A model generated the notes under the pieces. The model ran no database searches. It saw nothing but the letters and a program-made list of their open reading frames with translations, and was not told the origin of the DNA. A stretch of 64,000 bases of DNA, from NCBI GenBank assembly GCA_964537975.1, contig CAZIDP010000020.1, forward strand, positions 783 to 64,782. Reading direction: 5' to 3'. Positions 6,300 to 50,600 of this stretch are shown here, piece after piece. A program made the position numbers and the translations under genes. The first letter of the stretch is position 1; each line of letters opens with the position of its first letter. Source of the stretch: an uncultured Nitrospirales bacterium (GTDB lineage: Bacteria > Hydrogenedentota > Hydrogenedentia > Hydrogenedentales > SCBR16-9).

Positions 6300-7709
6300 A
6301 TGACACAGGAATCCAGACCCAATATCATAACCATAGTTGCGGATGATCTCGGCGTATGGGGACTCAGGTCTTATGGAAATCATGAGATTCGCACGCCCCA
6401 TCTGGATCAACTCGCCGCTTCCGGCATACGATTTGAAAATTTCTTTTGTACTTCACCGGTTTGTTCACCAGCCCGGGCATCACTTCTGACAGGGCGTATA
6501 CCTTCACAGCATGGGGTACATGACTGGATTCGCCGGGGCAACCAAAAAGAAGACCGCGTAGAATATCTGGCAGGTCTGACCGGATTCAGTGAATTGCTTG
6601 CTGATGCAGGATACCAATGTGCATTCAGTGGGAAGTGGCACCTTGGTGACAGTTCAAGACCACAGAAAGGGTATGCCCACTGGTACACCTATCAAACAGG
6701 TGGTGGGCCCTATTACAATGCGCCCATGTACCGGGATGGAGAAGCGATCCGGGAACCCGGTTATGTGACGGATCGCATCACAGATGAAGCACTGGTATTT
6801 CTGGAACACATGGTTTCTGGAGCGGCACCTTTTCATCTGGCTGTACACTATACCGCTCCGCACAGTCCCTGGGTGAACAACCATCCACCTGAACTGGTGG
6901 CAGCCTATGAGGACTGTCCATTCCATTCTTGTCCACAAGAAACGCCTCATCCCTGGGTGTTAAAAAATACGGTTCCTGAAGGGGTTTATGAAGCACCACA
7001 AGAACATCTCAAGGGGTACTTTGCATCAGTCACAGCGATGGATGCCAACATAGGCCGTATTATGTCCGCACTGGATCAACATGGAATATTGAACAACTCC
7101 TTCATCTTTTTTACCAGTGACAACGGATACAATTGTGGTCATCATGGTATCTGGGGCAAGGGGAATGGTACCTATCCATTGAATATGTATGATACCAGCG
7201 TCAAGGTGCCGACATTGTTGTCAATGCCTGGCAGAGAGGGTGCGGGTACGGTATGTAAGGCATTGTTGAGCCATTATGATTTAATGCCGACATTGATGGA
7301 TTTGGTTGGCGTAGCTTTGCCAGACGCAGAATCCCTACCCGGCAGTTCATTTTTACCGGTTCTTCGCGGAGAGCAACCCGAGGCACGGTCTGAAGTTGTT
7401 GTCTTTGATGAATATGGCCCCGTGCGTATGATTCGGAACCACGAATGGAAATATGTGCATCGATATCCCTATGGGCCGCACGAATTGTACGATCTTACCG
7501 AAGACCCGGACGAGCTGAATAATCTGGCAAAAGACAATTCATTTAATGAGGTTCGCGAAACATTGAAGGCACAACTGGACACGTGGTTTCTTCGTTATGC
7601 GGTTCCAGATCGGGATGGTATCCGTGAGCCGGTTTATGGCAAAGGGCAGCTCGGGTTATGTGGTACAGCAGCAAAGGGTAAAAATGTTTTTGCTGACGAC
7701 ATCCGCTGA
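6300..7709 (+). CDS. Cys-type (formylglycine) sulfatase, choline-sulfatase-like, cytoplasmic
   Basis: RPNIITIVADDLG, CSPARASLLTG (CxPxR), GKWHLG, FTSDNG, ELYDLTEDPDE; no signal peptide. Confidence 0.93.
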   Translation: MTQESRPNIITIVADDLGVWGLRSYGNHEIRTPHLDQLAASGIRFENFFCTSPVCSPARASLLTGRIPSQHGVHDWIRRGNQKEDRVEYLAGLTGFSELLADAGYQCAFSGKWHLGDSSRPQKGYAHWYTYQTGGGPYYNAPMYRDGEAIREPGYVTDRITDEALVFLEHMVSGAAPFHLAVHYTAPHSPWVNNHPPELVAAYEDCPFHSCPQETPHPWVLKNTVPEGVYEAPQEHLKGYFASVTAMDANIGRIMSALDQHGILNNSFIFFTSDNGYNCGHHGIWGKGNGTYPLNMYDTSVKVPTLLSMPGREGAGTVCKALLSHYDLMPTLMDLVGVALPDAESLPGSSFLPVLRGEQPEARSEVVVFDEYGPVRMIRNHEWKYVHRYPYGPHELYDLTEDPDELNNLAKDNSFNEVRETLKAQLDTWFLRYAVPDRDGIREPVYGKGQLGLCGTAAKGKNVFADDIR

Positions 7710-20949: not shown

Positions 20950-21807
20950 ATGCCTGAACTGCCTTTAACGCCGAATCATATGCTGGGTATTTGCCCAGAC
21001 AGACCATTTCGCATTTTGCAATTAACCGACTTCCATTCTGATGTCAGTGAAGTGTTAAATGAGCAGACGCGGGCTCTTGTACTGGGCTTGGTACAAAAGC
21101 ATCAACCGGATTTTCTGGCAGTAACCGGTGATATCTGGTGTGGTGATACGCATCCAGATGCAGCACCAATGTGGATGATGCGTGATTTGGCATTTTTGGG
21201 TTCATTGGGGGTTCCCTGGGCATTGATCTGGGGGAATCATGATTATGCCTGGAATATCAACGATGCCTGGCGAAGTATTATGAACACCCCAAACTACCAG
21301 GCACCGACAGCTTTTAGTAACAATCATTTTCGTATCACGCTGGTACCTGATGGTCATGATTGTCCTGTCTGGGATATATATTTTATACATTCAGGACTCC
21401 AATGGAATTTACCCGCAGATTTTGAGTGGTTGGAAGCAAAGGCAATGCAGTTGCGGGAAGCCCGGGGACAAATTCTTCCAAGCATTGTTTTCTTTCATAT
21501 CCCCTTGAAGTGTTACCAGGACGCGGTGGATAGCGGCAAGTACACCGGGATCGCATTGGAGCCTGTTCTGTGTTGGGGCGATGAAGCGGGCACAGGAGCG
21601 GATATCATCAAAAGCATAGGAGGTGTACGAGCCTGTTTTTGTGGACACAGTCACCGGTGCGACTTTCACTTCTTGGAGGGTGATGTTGTTTTTGCCTATG
21701 GGCGGGTAACCGGGTATGGCGGGTATGGTGAAGACATGCCCAGAGGGGGCAAACTGATTCAACTGAACCTTCAAGACAGTACGGTAACCTTCGAAACTGT
21801 GTTTTAG
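20950..21807 (+). CDS. Calcineurin-like metallophosphoesterase
   Basis: LQLTDFH, VTGD, GNHD, FFHIP, GHSH motifs. Confidence 0.9.
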   Translation: MPELPLTPNHMLGICPDRPFRILQLTDFHSDVSEVLNEQTRALVLGLVQKHQPDFLAVTGDIWCGDTHPDAAPMWMMRDLAFLGSLGVPWALIWGNHDYAWNINDAWRSIMNTPNYQAPTAFSNNHFRITLVPDGHDCPVWDIYFIHSGLQWNLPADFEWLEAKAMQLREARGQILPSIVFFHIPLKCYQDAVDSGKYTGIALEPVLCWGDEAGTGADIIKSIGGVRACFCGHSHRCDFHFLEGDVVFAYGRVTGYGGYGEDMPRGGKLIQLNLQDSTVTFETVF

Positions 21808-21850
21808 CGTAATAACGTATCAAGTTATGTAGAAGGAATGAAGAGCATAC

Positions 21851-22062
21851 AAAAAGAGAAGGACGTCCTTGAACATCCCTGTTCGACGTCCTCCTCAGAC
21901 CCAAGAATCCTGTAACAATGCACTGCCATCCACGAGTGAACACTGATATTCGCAATCTTCACCGGCATTGCTCAGGAAATGTGACCTCCGTGTCCATTTA
22001 AGCGGTTTGACCTCCGTGTCTTGCCGTCACTCTATCCTTATCGGCAATCTGGAAATGATTCT
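21851..22062 (-). ncRNA. Candidate CsrB/RsmZ-like GGA-rich small RNA or 3' UTR-derived RNA
   Basis: Ten GGA motifs in about 170 nt (21866-22037), several in hairpin loops: GAC-ACGGAG-GTC twice and GAACA-GGGA-TGTTC. Ends in a GGACGTC/GACGTCC stem followed by TTCTCTTTTT. Confidence 0.45.
21982..22020. repeat. 13-bp direct repeat tgacctccgtgtc (2 copies)
   Basis: Identical copies at 21982-21994 and 22008-22020. Confidence 0.9.
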
Positions 22063-22581
22063 TTAGCGTTGAAACCGTTCCCAGTGTATAACTTCCTTCA
22101 AAGTGCGTTTTTGTGGATTTGGGATGGTTTCTGGGTATCCCACCGATATCAAACTGACCAGCTTGTAATTTGCAGGTATTTCCACCAATTCACGAATTGG
22201 AGCGGTGTATGCTTTCTTGTCACCTGCGATCCAACATGCCCCCAGACCCAATGCACTTGCTGCCAGCAGTATGTTCTGGGTGGCAGCGCAACCGTCTTCA
22301 AGGTAGTAGGTTGAATCTTCACAAAACACGAGTATACAAACTGGAGCATCCTCAATATGCTTTCCATGATCGGTGGCCAAAGCAATGGTACGGCGCTTAT
22401 CCGGGTCCGTCACCACCACAAATTCCCACGGTTGTACATTGCGTGCGGAAGCTGCCAATCGACCACAATCAACCATTGTTTCGATGGCTTGTTTTGAAAC
22501 CCCCTTGTCCAGGTAAGAACGAACAGAACGACGTGTCCTCATAACTTCCAGTGCATCCATAATAAAATGTAATTCCCCCAT
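22063..22581 (-). CDS. Nitroreductase family protein
   Basis: TRRSVRSY, AASARNVQPWEF, QNILLAASALGLGACW, ISVGYP; start may be ATG 22560. Confidence 0.93.
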   Translation of the reverse strand: MGELHFIMDALEVMRTRRSVRSYLDKGVSKQAIETMVDCGRLAASARNVQPWEFVVVTDPDKRRTIALATDHGKHIEDAPVCILVFCEDSTYYLEDGCAATQNILLAASALGLGACWIAGDKKAYTAPIRELVEIPANYKLVSLISVGYPETIPNPQKRTLKEVIHWERFQR

Positions 22582-32383: not shown

Positions 32384-34012
32384 ATGATTCTGGGCATTTC
32401 AGGGTGTTTGATATACTTCATGAGTGCCATGAGTGCTTCTGCGCCATTACAATGTGTGCAATATTGCATTCTGGAATTTGAGCTGGAAGCTGACACGGTT
32501 ATTGAATCACCACTCGACGTAGAACTAACAGGGATGTTTTCTGCTACTGGAGACATCACGGTACAAATTGCCGGATTCTGGGACGGGGGTAGAAGCTGGA
32601 AATTACGTTTTAAACCGTTGGTGGCTGGCGAATGGCATTATACAATCCAGGCTTCACATCCATCCTTGCATGAAAAATCGGGAACCATCCAGGTTGCACA
32701 GGCCCAGGGTAGCTCTCTACTGGAAAAGCATGGAGGTATCCTCCAGGTATCTGAAAATAGAAGACACCTCACCTATAGTGATGGTACTCCCTTCTTTTGG
32801 CTGGGTGATACCTGGTGGTTTGCTCCCAGTGAGTATGTGCCTTTGGAAGGCTCAACCCATCCGGACATTGAGTCTGCATTCAAGCACATGACCGCACGCA
32901 GGAAAGCACAGGGCTATTCCATCATACACATGGCATTTCTCGGCCCAAACAGCCACGGCGTGAACAGCTTTCAGGGAGGAGAGATTGATCCGAAATATTG
33001 GCAGATCATCGATCAGTATATGGATTATACCAATGCGGAAGGACTGATACCGGTGGTGGGGTTGGCGTTTCACTCCGGACTGGATTGGCTGAACCTCGAA
33101 CAATGGAAGCAAATTTGGCGTTATTTCATTGCCCGATATGGCGCCCATGATGTCTCCTGGCTGGTTTGTGGTGAGTACAATCAACACAATGTACCAGAAC
33201 GCGTTGAAAAGGCAATGGCATTGGGTGCATTCATCAAAAAAACAGACCCCTATCAGCGGGCAATGACTATACATCCCTGGTGGTATCGTGGTGAAGAACG
33301 GCAGGCTTGGGATGCGCCCTGGTACGATTTTGTCATGTTGCAAGGCGCGCATGAGGCTGATGTTCCAGCGGCAAACCTGTATTGGGATGTCTGGTTCGGT
33401 AAAGACACTGGTGAGAAGCATCCGATACCTGTTCTTGAAGGAGAAGCACGGTATGAGGGTATTCGAAATATTAACGAGAACGATGTCCGGGCAACTGCCT
33501 ACAGGGCAATTCAGGCTGGGTCCTTCGGCTTTACCTATGGCAGCCATGGTTTATGGTATCCGACGCAAGATGAAAATGACGAAACATTTAAGGAGTGGGG
33601 TGATCCCATACCTTGGTGGGAAGCACTCGAACGTCCCGGTGGAGCGCAAATGAAACACTTGCGTTCTTATTATGAGATGTTGCCCTGGTGGAATCTGGAG
33701 CCTTTGCCGAATGGGATTCAAACAGTAAATGAGCAAACGACATTCACCGAAAACCAGCGCGTATTGGTAAAGGCGCATGTGCCTGAAGTTTATTCAATAT
33801 ATTTCCCGGCCCATCACGACACCGGTATTGAATTGTACTTAGCGGAGATACCGAGCGAAAGCTCTTATCAAGGACATTGGTATAATCCGCGAACAGGTGA
33901 GAAAACATCCTTGCCGGAAACACTAAGTACACACAACAACACATTATCGTTGCCAGCACCTCCTGACACCCAGGATTGGTTGCTGGCATTATTTATCGAA
34001 GTTAAAAAATGA
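32384..34012 (+). CDS. DUF5060/DUF4038 (apiosidase-like) protein with C-terminal collagen-binding-like domain
   Basis: GFWDGGRSWKLRF, DGTPFFWLGDTWW, YFIARYGA, TIHP, EGEARYEG, GFTYGSHG, WYNPRTGE, DWLL. Confidence 0.8.
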   Translation: MILGISGCLIYFMSAMSASAPLQCVQYCILEFELEADTVIESPLDVELTGMFSATGDITVQIAGFWDGGRSWKLRFKPLVAGEWHYTIQASHPSLHEKSGTIQVAQAQGSSLLEKHGGILQVSENRRHLTYSDGTPFFWLGDTWWFAPSEYVPLEGSTHPDIESAFKHMTARRKAQGYSIIHMAFLGPNSHGVNSFQGGEIDPKYWQIIDQYMDYTNAEGLIPVVGLAFHSGLDWLNLEQWKQIWRYFIARYGAHDVSWLVCGEYNQHNVPERVEKAMALGAFIKKTDPYQRAMTIHPWWYRGEERQAWDAPWYDFVMLQGAHEADVPAANLYWDVWFGKDTGEKHPIPVLEGEARYEGIRNINENDVRATAYRAIQAGSFGFTYGSHGLWYPTQDENDETFKEWGDPIPWWEALERPGGAQMKHLRSYYEMLPWWNLEPLPNGIQTVNEQTTFTENQRVLVKAHVPEVYSIYFPAHHDTGIELYLAEIPSESSYQGHWYNPRTGEKTSLPETLSTHNNTLSLPAPPDTQDWLLALFIEVKK

Positions 34013-46436: not shown

Positions 46437-46690
46437 GTTCAGATTGGGCAGTCCAACTGCAATTTAATAATCGGGCAGAGAATTAATCAAGCAGAACAGA
46501 CAAGTACAAGCCAAAGCAAAAGACTTAATATGAAAACAATAATTTTACATACAAAAAACTTGAATCGGTCGAAAACATATGTTATATTAAGTTAACAACG
46601 CTTAGTTGCTAATGATTACAAACATTATTAAGTTGCCAATAAAGTAAAATTAAAATTTTATTGGATAATTGCATATGGAAAGAGAAAATA

Positions 46691-47620
46691 ATGAAGAATC
46701 GATTGAGAATTAAAGGATTTACCCTCATAGAGTTGTTGGTTGTCATAGCCATAATTGGGATACTGGCGGCCATTTTATTACCCGCTCTTGCAAGAGCACG
46801 TGAAGCAGCTCGCCGTGCGTCTTGTGCCAACAATTTGAAGCAACTTGGTGTGGTCATGAAAATGTATTCGGGTGAATCACGTGGTGGCTTGCTTCCACCA
46901 CGAATGATATATGGCTGCCCCAATCCGCAAACCGGAGCAGTCAGTTTAAGCGATACCATGATATTCAATGGCAATTCCGTTATGCCGGATTATCTGGCTG
47001 ACGCAAATATCGTATGGTGCCCTTCCTGGGTTGTACAGTCTACCCCACTTGAAAGGTATGACGAGGCATATGGTAACAACAATGGCATAATCGAGCCTTG
47101 TGAGCTGCGCAAAGAACCTTATAACTACATGGGCTGGCTGGTTTTACACGATGCCAACTTATTGGGCTTTGAACTTCTGGGAGTAGAGGGCACGGATGTT
47201 GGTGGCAGGCATTCAACCGATGAATACCGGGGTACCCCCCTCGGAGATTTAGCCACGATGAACGTGCAGTCATGGGGTAGACAAAGTGATGAGAATTTCA
47301 CCGTGGTACGTCAGGAGCATTTTGGGACACAAGCAGGCGGGGGCAATACCCTGTACCGTTTACGAGAGGGCATTGAACGCTTTCTTATTACTGATATCAA
47401 CAATCCTGGCAGCAGTGCGCAATCACAAAGTGAAATTCCTGTGATGTGGGACCATGTAACCACATTGTCGAAAGATTTTAATCACCTGCCTGGTGGCGCA
47501 AATGTGTTGTACCTGGATGGCCACGTCACATTCCACCATTATCCCGGAAACAAATTTCCGGTTACGGAAGACAGTGCCCGAACTTTCGGTCGGTACAACC
47601 GCCCCTTTAACCTTTTTTAG
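46691..47620 (+). CDS. DUF1559 / prepilin-type N-terminal cleavage-methylation protein with H-X9/10-DG tail
   Basis: KG|[42 protein letters not shown]; WCPS; [15 protein letters not shown]. Confidence 0.92.
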
Positions 47621-49620: not shown

Positions 49621-50562
49621 TTATCCGCCGAAGGCACGATCATACCGGCCCATGATACGGGGACCATCCAGTGTGACAACCCAGGGGGAGTCCTGGGGAT
49701 ATTTTTCATAGGTTACATGGCCATCCATGTATAAGACATTGATGCCGTAAAGATGTGAGGAACCGGTAACTTGCGGGGTCAGATGGTCCCACATTACCGG
49801 TATCGCACTTTGGGTGATGGCACTTGCGGCTGGATTGTTAATATCCGAGATCAGAAAACGCTCGACCCCTTCCCGCAGGCGGTACATGGTGTTTCCACCA
49901 CCCAATTGGGTACCTTGAAACTGGGGTGAAAAAGCGAAATCCCTGTCGGATGCAGCACCAAAAGTATTGATGTTTGCAATGGCCAGCTCCAGGAAGGGTG
50001 TGTTCAGCCAGTCGGCATCATCGAAGCGACCACCAGGTCCACTGCCTTCTGTGCCCGCTTTGTCGCCCAACACATTACGTGCATCCATAATCAACCAGCC
50101 GGTATAGTTGAAGGGCGCCTTCAACAGTTCTTCAGGTTCAATAATGCCGTTGCTGTTTCCCGAAGCGATACCCGCTCTTCGGACCCCTTCATCATACCGT
50201 GACAATGGTGTCGCGCCGCCACTGCCCCAGGAAGGACACCAGACCACGTTCAGGTCTGACAGATAGTCGGGGAATACCGACGGCCCATTGAAAATCATGG
50301 TATCGGACAGGCCGCCATAGATATTGTAGATCATGCGTGGTGGAAATAGTTGACGCGAAGATTCGCCCGCATACATTTTGAAAGCGATGCTCATCTGCCG
50401 GAGGTTGTTCTGACAACTGGCACGATTCGCCGCTTCACGTGCTCGACTCAGGGCTGGTAGTAGAATAGCTGCCAGTATGCCAATGATGGCAATAACCACC
50501 AACAACTCTATGAGCGTGAATCCGGCTCGTTGCCAGATTTTTATTTTAGTTCTGAAATACAT
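49621..50562 (-). CDS. DUF1559 / prepilin-type protein with H-X9-DG motif (paralog of 46691)
   Basis: AG|FTLIELLVV...SCQNNLRQ; WCPS; [14 protein letters not shown]; shares YRLREG(V/I)ERFLI(S/T)DINNP with the 46691 copy. Confidence 0.92.
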
Positions 50563-50600
50563 CCCGTATCTCCCAGTCAGCAATTGACATCAAATGCAGT

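Follow-up and report, generated by a model that had tools for sequence, protein, structure and literature searches.

A putative sigma-28-controlled small RNA family with paired CsrA-type hairpins in Hydrogenedentota

INTRODUCTION

In the textbook view, CsrA of Gammaproteobacteria is antagonized by sponge RNAs (CsrB/CsrC and RsmX/RsmY/RsmZ) that depend on GacA/UvrY, and to our knowledge the CsrA decoy RNAs described so far come mainly from that class. In FliW-type systems, small RNA (sRNA) antagonists of CsrA are said to be lacking. Here we describe an element on the minus strand of a 64-kb stretch of DNA (contig CAZIDP010000020.1, whose GTDB lineage is the uncultured candidate phylum Hydrogenedentota; the whole stretch is referred to below as the window) that appears to belong to a family of sRNAs, each with its own sigma-28-type promoter and a pair of hairpins of the kind that CsrA binds. 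A preliminary description of the same DNA had taken the element for a CsrB/RsmZ-like, CsrA-sequestering sRNA, possibly derived from a 3' untranslated region (UTR), in a lineage for which no such sponge was known.

CsrA has been reported in most phyla and in ~30% of genomes, and an ancestral CsrA-FliW pair has been proposed for flagellated bacteria. Two flagellin leaders offer the closest comparison with the present element, since CsrA represses hag in Bacillus subtilis and flaA in Campylobacter jejuni through a leader with two sites, and an engineered leader-only flaA transcript (flaA_mini) titrates CsrA in C. jejuni. Small RNAs tied to the late flagellar regulon are also known, among them MotR, FliX, FlgO and UhpU of Escherichia coli and a group in Campylobacter; these are sigma-28 dependent and mostly UTR derived, and they act by Hfq-dependent or antisense base pairing. 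We know of none that carries a CsrA-type hairpin pair or is related in sequence to the family described here.

RESULTS

A pair of identical hairpins identifies an RNA family

The preliminary description drew attention to ten GGA triplets, where about three would be expected by chance, and to two identical GAC-ACGGAG-GTC hairpins. We counted exactly 10 GGA on the minus strand of positions 21851-22062, against 3.1 expected from the composition of the window and 4.6 from the local composition (P = 0.005 by mononucleotide shuffling). All 212-nucleotide (nt) windows of the 64 kb had a mean of 3.3 (standard deviation, 2.0), which places the element ~3 standard deviations above, and seven such clusters with at least 10 GGA were found on the two strands, so that the count is not unique; the folding energy of the spacer as a whole, compared with shuffled sequences, was unremarkable (z = -1.3). 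GGA counts alone make a weak case, and it is the pair of identical 12-mers that mattered. The 64 kb contain GACACGGAGGTC just twice, at 22009-22020 and 21983-21994, and a search that tolerated one mismatch added no further copy (0.2 expected).

We scanned GTDB, with one genome per species, for two copies of the 12-mer lying 5-35 nt apart and found 87 matches, where ~0.1 would be expected by our estimate. These fell into three classes: coding repeats, tandem arrays resembling repetitive extragenic palindromes (REP-like), and 14 loci that share the whole architecture of the window element. Ten of the 14 are named Hydrogenedentota; the remaining 4, titled Nitrospiraceae, Nitrospirales, Bathyarchaeia and an unnamed metagenome chromosome, have neighborhoods near-identical to Hydrogenedentota ones. 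The contigs titled Nitrospiraceae, Nitrospirales and Bathyarchaeia (L022, L028 and L067, respectively), which carry the same sRNA and the same neighbors as Hydrogenedentota contigs, are probably binning errors. The shared layout runs from CTAAAGT through ~12 nt to GCCGATA and from there to hairpin 1 (after ~18 nt) and hairpin 2 (after a further ~13 nt), which are followed by a ~90-nt stem domain and, last, a GC hairpin with its T-run.

Further family members came from a metagenome scan in which only GCCGATA and the first hairpin were fixed (about half of its matches were one unrelated human-gut coding sequence). We modeled the 5' module (85 nt, with promoter, hairpin 1 and hairpin 2) by covariance, and this model recovered 48 copies scoring at least 57 bits in the fetched loci, representing 39 distinct 5' modules, with a clear score gap below them. 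A version of the model (R2) built without the window sequence matched 21979-22065 on the minus strand over its full length (1-85) with 63.4 bits and E = 3.7e-17, and its next best match in the 64 kb scored 11 bits. Because this match was made by a model to which the window had not contributed, the element is a member of a conserved family, and one that Rfam lacks: the CsrB/CsrC/RsmX/RsmY/RsmZ models matched neither the window nor the 14 family loci at gathering score, nothing matched the interval 21700-22200 at E values up to 10, and permissive thresholds on two of the family members (L027 and L085) gave weak terminator look-alikes only. Overall, tRNAs and terminator look-alikes were the only Rfam matches. 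The papers searched likewise contain no description of such an RNA, in keeping with the claim that no sponge had been described in this lineage, and none of them links Hydrogenedentota with CsrA. We regard it as highly probable that the element is an sRNA gene of a conserved family, and on the sequence evidence that family is conserved in flagellated Hydrogenedentota.

The two hairpins are subject to a strict rule. In all 39 distinct members both cores read GAC-A-N-GGA-N-GUC and change at the two N positions only, with C, A, U or G at loop position 2 and G, U, C or A at loop position 6. The hairpin 2 loops are exclusively ACGGAG, ACGGAU, ACGGAC, AUGGAU, AUGGAC, AUGGAG, ACGGAA or AAGGAG, and the spacing between the hairpins is 21-30 nt. 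The number of GGA per RNA varies from 2 to 9 (median, 4), of which 2 are conserved. The outer-stem pairs of hairpin 1 are kept across the family, with a few compensatory changes.

Downstream of the hairpins the family is more diverse. The middle domain aligns poorly between subfamilies, and RNAalifold on full-length sequences recovers only the 5' hairpins and the terminator, while an equivalent long stem is seen in individual folds of 36 members. In most of them this stem bears an apical AAUCCCA or AUUCCCA loop (for example, L014 6038-6249, L053 761-979 and L066 1941-2146); the window copy lacks the AAUCCCA loop and has its own long-stem domain in place of that hairpin. Every full-length member ends in a GC-rich hairpin and a T-run. 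In the consensus fold of 15 members, 9 of the 22 predicted pairs show compensatory changes on both sides; 13 of the 22 belong to the terminator helix, 7 of them with such two-sided changes.

The genes are often repeated: L014, L021, L053, L085, L086, L120, L130, L142, L185 and L067 have two or three in tandem, every one behind a promoter of its own, and the minus strand of L164 encodes one RNA with four hairpins. The contig L067 carries three sRNA genes in tandem at 6817-7470 (plus strand); the second of them (7049-7220) has no GGA hairpins but retains its sigma-28 promoter, AAUCCCA hairpin and terminator. In other genomes the same RNA adjoins unrelated genes; a recurring position for the family is between an FMN reductase gene or rmlD and truA, with the sRNA gene or genes in the middle.

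The RNA would be transcribed from its own sigma-28 promoter

The published sigma-28 (FliA) consensus is TAAAGTTT-n11-GCCGATAA (PMC2859248), and the window element is preceded by TAAAGAAT-n12-GCCGATAA, which has the form of a sigma-28 promoter. A search for TAAA-N14-17-GCCGATA gave this single match in the 64 kb (0.11 expected). The consensus derived from the family, CTAAAGTTT-n11/12-GCCGATA(A/T), also matches the published one; CTAAAG(T) and GCCGATA, at n11 or n12 spacing, are the best-conserved blocks outside the hairpins, and CCGAT is unchanged in 31 of 31 aligned members. In two Hydrogenedentota contigs (L214 and L217) the flagellin operons begin with the same kind of promoter, GCTAAAGTT-n11-GCCGATAA, and their first flagellin gene follows ~560 nt further on. 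We consider it very probable that the promoter is of the sigma-28 type, in which case the transcript would start ~7-8 nt downstream of the -10 element, around position 22030.

There is no terminator between the nitroreductase stop codon and the element, and read-through from that gene would therefore also make the sRNA part of the nitroreductase 3' UTR. With a consensus sigma-28 promoter of its own, the RNA would be independent of such read-through, which stays possible but unneeded. The 3'-UTR origin suggested in the preliminary description is accordingly not supported, this promoter being common to all family members and to the flagellin operons. The interval 22066-22300, ahead of the element, contains no GacA/UvrY box (TGTAAG-N6-CTTACA, 3 mismatches allowed); the closest candidate, with 3 mismatches, lies inside the RNA at 21911-21928, and the window total of 15 compares with 22 expected by chance.

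Structure of the window copy

The features of the locus are collected in Table 1. Both hairpins of the window copy read A-CACGGAGG-U. In the predicted ensemble the loop of hairpin 2 is open (probability of being unpaired, 0.97-1.0), and that of hairpin 1 is partly paired. The GGA at 22037 falls in the -10/start region of the promoter, leaving 9 GGA in the RNA itself. Five of these (21995, 21910, 21894, 21891 and 21868) are predicted to be buried in stems, two or more bases of each triplet having an unpaired probability of ~0; at 21868 the first G alone is exposed. Four candidate exposed sites remain. The GGA in the loop of hairpin 2 is clearly unpaired, as are those at 21931 (apical loop) and 21878 (inner loop of the terminator); the fourth lies in the loop of hairpin 1.

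Other parts of the preliminary description can be judged from these folds. The terminator-like stem and T-run are there (a 12-bp stem, then TTTTT), as is the GAACA-GGGA-TGTTC hairpin, a 5-bp stem with ACAGGGATGT in its loop. Of the enclosing stems, CACU/AGUG does expose a GGA, whereas the TTGCCG arm of the other is part of the -10 element and would be present in RNA only on nitroreductase read-through. The ten proposed binding sites shrink to about four exposed here, one being in the promoter and five in stems, and to two conserved in the family. A second exact ACAGGGATGT, which resembles the core selected by CsrA in systematic evolution of ligands by exponential enrichment, lies at 32528-32537 (plus strand) within a long open reading frame (ORF); two matches against 0.33 expected probably reflect chance.

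Table 1. Features of the sRNA locus in the 64-kb window
Feature	Position	Strand	Remarks
Spacer between convergent genes	21808-22062		flagged part 21851-22062, read on the minus strand
Nitroreductase-family gene, 172 amino acids (aa)	22063..22581	-	PF00881/PF14512; upstream of the sRNA, same strand
Metallophosphoesterase gene, 285 aa	20950..21807	+	PF00149; convergent, downstream of the sRNA
-35 element, sigma-28 (FliA) type, TAAAGAAT	22058..22065	-	first three bases are the nitroreductase stop TAA (22065-22063)
-10 element, sigma-28 type, GCCGATAA	22038..22045	-	12 nt (n12) after the -35 element
GGA triplets	22037, 22015, 21995, 21989, 21931, 21910, 21894, 21891, 21878, 21868	-	
Hairpin 1, CGG-C-AA-GAC-[ACGGAG]-GUC-AAA-CCG	22003..22026	-	3-4 bp outer stem, 2x2 internal loop, 3-bp GAC/GUC stem, A-N-GGA-N hexaloop
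Hairpin 2, AUG-GAC-[ACGGAG]-GUC-A-CAU	21979..21997	-	same 12-mer core (21983-21994), 26 nt after hairpin 1
Variable long-stem domain, UCCUGAGCAAUGC...GCAUUGUUACAGGA	21908..21977	-	minimum-free-energy and ensemble folds
Apical part of long stem, CACU-CGUGGAUGGC-AGUG	21921-21938	-	exposes GGA at 21931
Intrinsic terminator, 12-bp GC-rich outer stem GAGGAGGACGUC/GACGUCCUUCUC	21851..21896	-	stem region 21896-21856, then UUUUU 21851-21855
Inner terminator hairpin GAACA-[GGGA]-UGUUC, ACAGGGAUGU	21871-21884	-	enclosed by the 12-bp outer stem

By its layout the locus reads as an independent non-coding RNA gene of ~180 nt on the minus strand at 21851-22065. Three other identities were rejected. A riboswitch or leader is ruled out because the element leads into no gene, the next one being the convergent metallophosphoesterase gene, and because it ends in a terminator. 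A small protein, for which a 47-aa ORF at 21825-21968 was the candidate, is ruled out by the absence among family members of any conserved ORF behind the Shine-Dalgarno (SD)-like loops; annotated contigs also have no gene calls in the sRNA intervals. Finally, 6S RNA, signal recognition particle RNA, RNase P RNA and tmRNA had been prompted by the size and by the GCCGAUA block, and are rejected because GCCGATA is the promoter -10, the ends are unpaired and the Rfam searches were negative.

At the locus itself, four metagenome contigs carry a 100% identical spacer; these come from the same population and are uninformative on conservation. BLASTN of the spacer against the window and the fetched loci found no paralogue. 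In the closest relative (L006, 3154-3936), a GH127 (beta-L-arabinofuranosidase-like) gene is represented by two short ORFs (151 and 103 aa), whereas its counterpart in the window lineage has 665 aa; it may be broken or misassembled. Elsewhere in the window, two ORFs (46661-47620 on the plus strand and 49621-50583 on the minus strand) start with a prepilin-type N-terminal motif, which is typical of large DUF1559-like families in PVC-type (Planctomycetota-Verrucomicrobiota-Chlamydiota) and related phyla. This motif fits a Hydrogenedentota origin without proving it; that lineage is indicated by membership in the sRNA family and by the named neighbors of the nitroreductase.

The hairpins resemble the ribosome-binding boxes of flagellin genes

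Hydrogenedentota metagenome-assembled genomes (MAGs) carry clusters of three or four flagellin genes together with flaG. In 13 of 15 flagellin genes from five Hydrogenedentota loci, we found an SD box reading CACGGAGG, CAAGGAGG or CAUGGAGG, that is, CA(C/A/U)GGAGG, and these three variants are the three commonest versions of sRNA hairpin 1. Most of these flagellin genes also have a short hairpin ~10-20 nt upstream of the SD box, with a loop reading A(N)GGAU or AGGGAU. The AAUCCCA/AUUCCCA loop of most family members is complementary to the GGGAU loops of these leader hairpins. The sRNA looks like a stand-alone mimic of a flagellin leader placed behind the same kind of promoter. The flagellin operon 5' UTRs in L214 (9420-10000) and L217 (6500-7050), behind their consensus sigma-28 promoters, are ~560 nt long and GGA rich.

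Hairpins of the same type occur in other settings. In several contigs (L183, L167, L096/L099/L105 and L175/L192/L194) a GCCGATA -10-like box is followed by the 12-mer hairpin acting as SD, and the genes behind it are fliS (Pfam, 4e-26), an flgN-like gene and genes for two small proteins (128 and 81 aa), which suggests that late flagellar genes of several lineages commonly have their SD in the form of this 12-mer hairpin. On a phage-like contig with capsid-like and primase-like ORFs (L110, contig Ga0075472_10016362), positions 235-442 of the minus strand encode a 54-aa CsrA-family protein (Pfam E = 2e-12), the SD of which lies within the same GACACGGAGGTC hairpin. A Leptospira sp. MAG (L010, JAWXAQ010000023.1, 370-575, plus strand) has a stretch of ~200 nt with ~14 GGA, including two GACACGGAGGTC, that ends in a GC hairpin and T7; before it lies a shorter unit whose terminator is similar. 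The stretch has the look of a CsrB-like small RNA, rich in GGA, from a spirochete. The REP-like arrays, with up to 12 units of 38 nt, were found in Planctomycetota, Verrucomicrobiota, Acidobacteriota and Chloroflexota (L054 2393-2821 on the minus strand, L033, L013, L051, L063, L093, L015, L030, L072, L024 and L025), and each of their units can fold in two ways, into a GGA-loop hairpin or into a longer palindrome in which GGAGG pairs with CCUCC.

CsrA as the candidate partner

The optimal RsmE/CsrA site derived from the RsmE-RNA structure is A/U-CANGGANG-U/A (cited in PMC6849547), and both hairpins of the window copy match this high-affinity form. The window RNA presents the optimum site in a hexaloop twice, the two sites being 26 nt apart. 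Dual-site binding is known for CsrA dimers, and the 21-30 nt spacing seen in the family would suit one dimer. Given that CsrA occurs in most phyla and that CsrA-FliW has been proposed to be ancestral, we consider a csrA gene likely in these organisms. On balance these features somewhat favor the view that the RNA binds a CsrA-family protein.

We give about even credence to a reading in which the RNA, under sigma-28 control, imitates the flagellin leader as a decoy for CsrA and relieves the repression of flagellin translation when the late genes fire; that its net role is titration we hold to be slightly short of an even bet. We infer here that the gene is transcribed, that its hosts have csrA, that CsrA binds the RNA and that the regulatory effect runs toward relief. 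In such a scheme, transcription from the late promoter would end at the intrinsic terminator, and the 5' part of the RNA would offer A-C-A-N-G-G-A-N-G-U in two hexaloop hairpins, at once the optimal CsrA/RsmE site and the flagellin SD box of the phylum. One CsrA dimer would bridge both loops, and the RNA would compete with the flagellin leaders, which pair an upstream GGA hairpin with the same SD box, and titrate CsrA, so that flagellin translation would be derepressed as soon as the late promoter is active. Capacity would be set by gene dosage (one to three tandem copies), with the window copy adding two extra exposed GGA loops.

Several observations weigh against this decoy reading. By tblastn, csrA, fliW and fliA were not found in the window or the ~1.5 Mb of fetched loci, except for the CsrA-family gene on phage-like contig L110. 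The Pfam-annotated 20-kb neighborhoods of five Hydrogenedentota flagellin clusters contain no CsrA or FliW, with none of csrA, fliW and fliA lying within 10 kb of five flagellin clusters, and the 64-kb window holds no flagellar gene. With only two conserved sites, each RNA would hold about one dimer, far less than CsrB. The AAUCCCA loop conserved in most members, together with the GGA-less copy in L067, means that the family may do something further, or that its main function may be another one. The 5' hairpins vary so little that they receive weak support from covariation, and part of the invariance of hairpin 1 stems from the patterns used in the searches; no such constraint applied to second and third tandem copies or, in the metagenome set, to hairpin 2, yet these follow the same rule. 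Finally, the closest syntenic relative, whose nitroreductase is 78% identical, has 29 nt between the stop codons and no element (the next relative is not syntenic), so that the GGA loops, strongly conserved at the level of the family, are absent from this locus in the nearest relative.

Alternative explanations

The conserved AAUCCCA/AUUCCCA loop raises the question of base pairing. The RNA could be a sigma-28-dependent riboregulator, antisense to flagellar or other mRNAs through this loop or through pairing of its GGAGG loops with CCUCC, with CsrA at most a helper. Sigma-28-dependent base-pairing sRNAs do exist in E. coli and Campylobacter, the upstream flagellin-leader loops read AGGGAU, and copy 2 of L067 has kept promoter, AAUCCCA loop and terminator without GGA hairpins. 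We nevertheless think this unlikely, as the window copy has lost the AUCCC loop and kept both GGA hairpins perfectly; the GGA hairpins are the most conserved part of the RNA, and their restriction to N-only changes fits a protein contact map, whereas a duplex would allow compensated changes or G-U pairs. It is also rather improbable that the hairpins serve as bait for something other than CsrA, either another flagellar RNA-binding regulator (FlbT-like or other) or, as SD mimics, the 30S subunit through its anti-SD sequence. The failure to find csrA in the fetched Hydrogenedentota loci speaks for this view, as do the perfect SD core GGAGGU in the loops, complementary to the anti-SD, and the identity of the loops to flagellin SD boxes. 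Against it, the base after GGA in hairpin 2 is often U, C or A (GGAUG, GGACG or GGAAG), which weakens SD pairing and is allowed by CANGGANG, neither the A nor the closing C-G pair varies, in line with the RsmE-RNA contacts, and the wide reported distribution of CsrA and the proposed ancestry of CsrA-FliW favor the CsrA partner.

The likeness to flagellin leaders could also mean that the RNA is a transcribed but functionless relic, a duplicated flagellin promoter and leader without the coding part, inasmuch as sigma-28 promoter, GGA hairpin and SD-box hairpin are all leader components. We judge this very improbable for an element kept across many divergent MAGs with its own terminator, a recurring position and frequent tandem duplication, in which the hairpins are strictly constrained while the flanks diverge. 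That we are dealing merely with the nitroreductase 3' UTR and its terminator, GGA rich by chance, is hardly credible: the missing terminator after the nitroreductase gene, the ordinary folding energy, the seven equally GGA-dense windows and the absence of the element from the nearest relative would all fit, but a model drawn from other genomes matches the element and the same RNA adjoins unrelated genes elsewhere, so that the family evidence refutes this explanation unless a contamination artifact is involved. We attach next to no credence to true homology with the gammaproteobacterial CsrB/CsrC/RsmX/Y/Z RNAs, with which the element shares GGA hexaloop hairpins and a terminator, since it has no Rfam match at E values up to 10 in the window, two family members gave nothing beyond terminator look-alikes, no GacA/UvrY box was found and the promoter type and architecture differ. 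As a statement of family membership, the label "CsrB/RsmZ-like" is therefore not supported. What survives of the proposed CsrA-sequestering sRNA, as far as sequence can show, is a small non-coding RNA with exact CsrA/RsmE-consensus hairpins, found phylum-wide; the family label, the 3'-UTR origin and the ten sites do not.

DISCUSSION

The RNA described here shares with CsrB/CsrC and RsmX/RsmY/RsmZ the form of a stand-alone, terminator-ended transcript with A-N-GGA-N hexaloops closed by C-G, the presence of several paralogous genes per genome and a presumed competition with mRNA leaders for the protein. It differs from them in having no sequence or structural homology, as judged by Rfam, in its 2 conserved sites against their 5-22, and in its sigma-28 flagellar promoter, where theirs depends on GacA/UvrY. 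The flagellin leaders of the host phylum, moreover, show the hag-like two-site layout that is typical of FliW-type systems, which sets the family further apart from the CsrB/RsmZ group.

The likeness to the B. subtilis hag and C. jejuni flaA leaders lies in a sigma-28/sigma-D promoter with two GGA sites behind it (in those leaders, one of the two serves as the SD box) and in the CA(C/A/U)GGAGG box that the sRNA hairpins share with Hydrogenedentota flagellin SDs. Unlike the leaders, the sRNA has no coding sequence, carries both sites in near-identical GAC/GUC hairpins, ends in its own terminator and occupies separate loci; it would be a dedicated natural "leader-only" decoy. With MotR, FliX, FlgO, UhpU and the Campylobacter sRNAs it has in common the tie of a small RNA to the late flagellar regulon.

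A CsrA-binding decoy RNA is in itself a known kind of molecule; what would be new is a different family, control by the flagellar sigma factor and a different phylum. We put forward, tentatively and with less than even confidence, that flagellated Hydrogenedentota oppose CsrA with a dedicated RNA that is driven by sigma-28, imitates the flagellin leader and is often encoded in two or three tandem copies, that RNA titration arose also within the ancestral CsrA circuit of flagellar control, alongside FliW or in its place, and that in most members the AAUCCCA loop kisses the GGGAU loop of the leader. If this is true, the two-way textbook division of CsrA systems would be blurred by an sRNA wired to the flagellar sigma factor and copying the flagellin ribosome-binding box, and RNA titration of CsrA would be no gammaproteobacterial invention tied to GacA/UvrY. 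The family would then be the natural counterpart of the engineered leader-only flaA transcript. The analysis also yields a covariance model for an RNA family outside Rfam and offers an initial picture of how Hydrogenedentota control their late flagellar genes.

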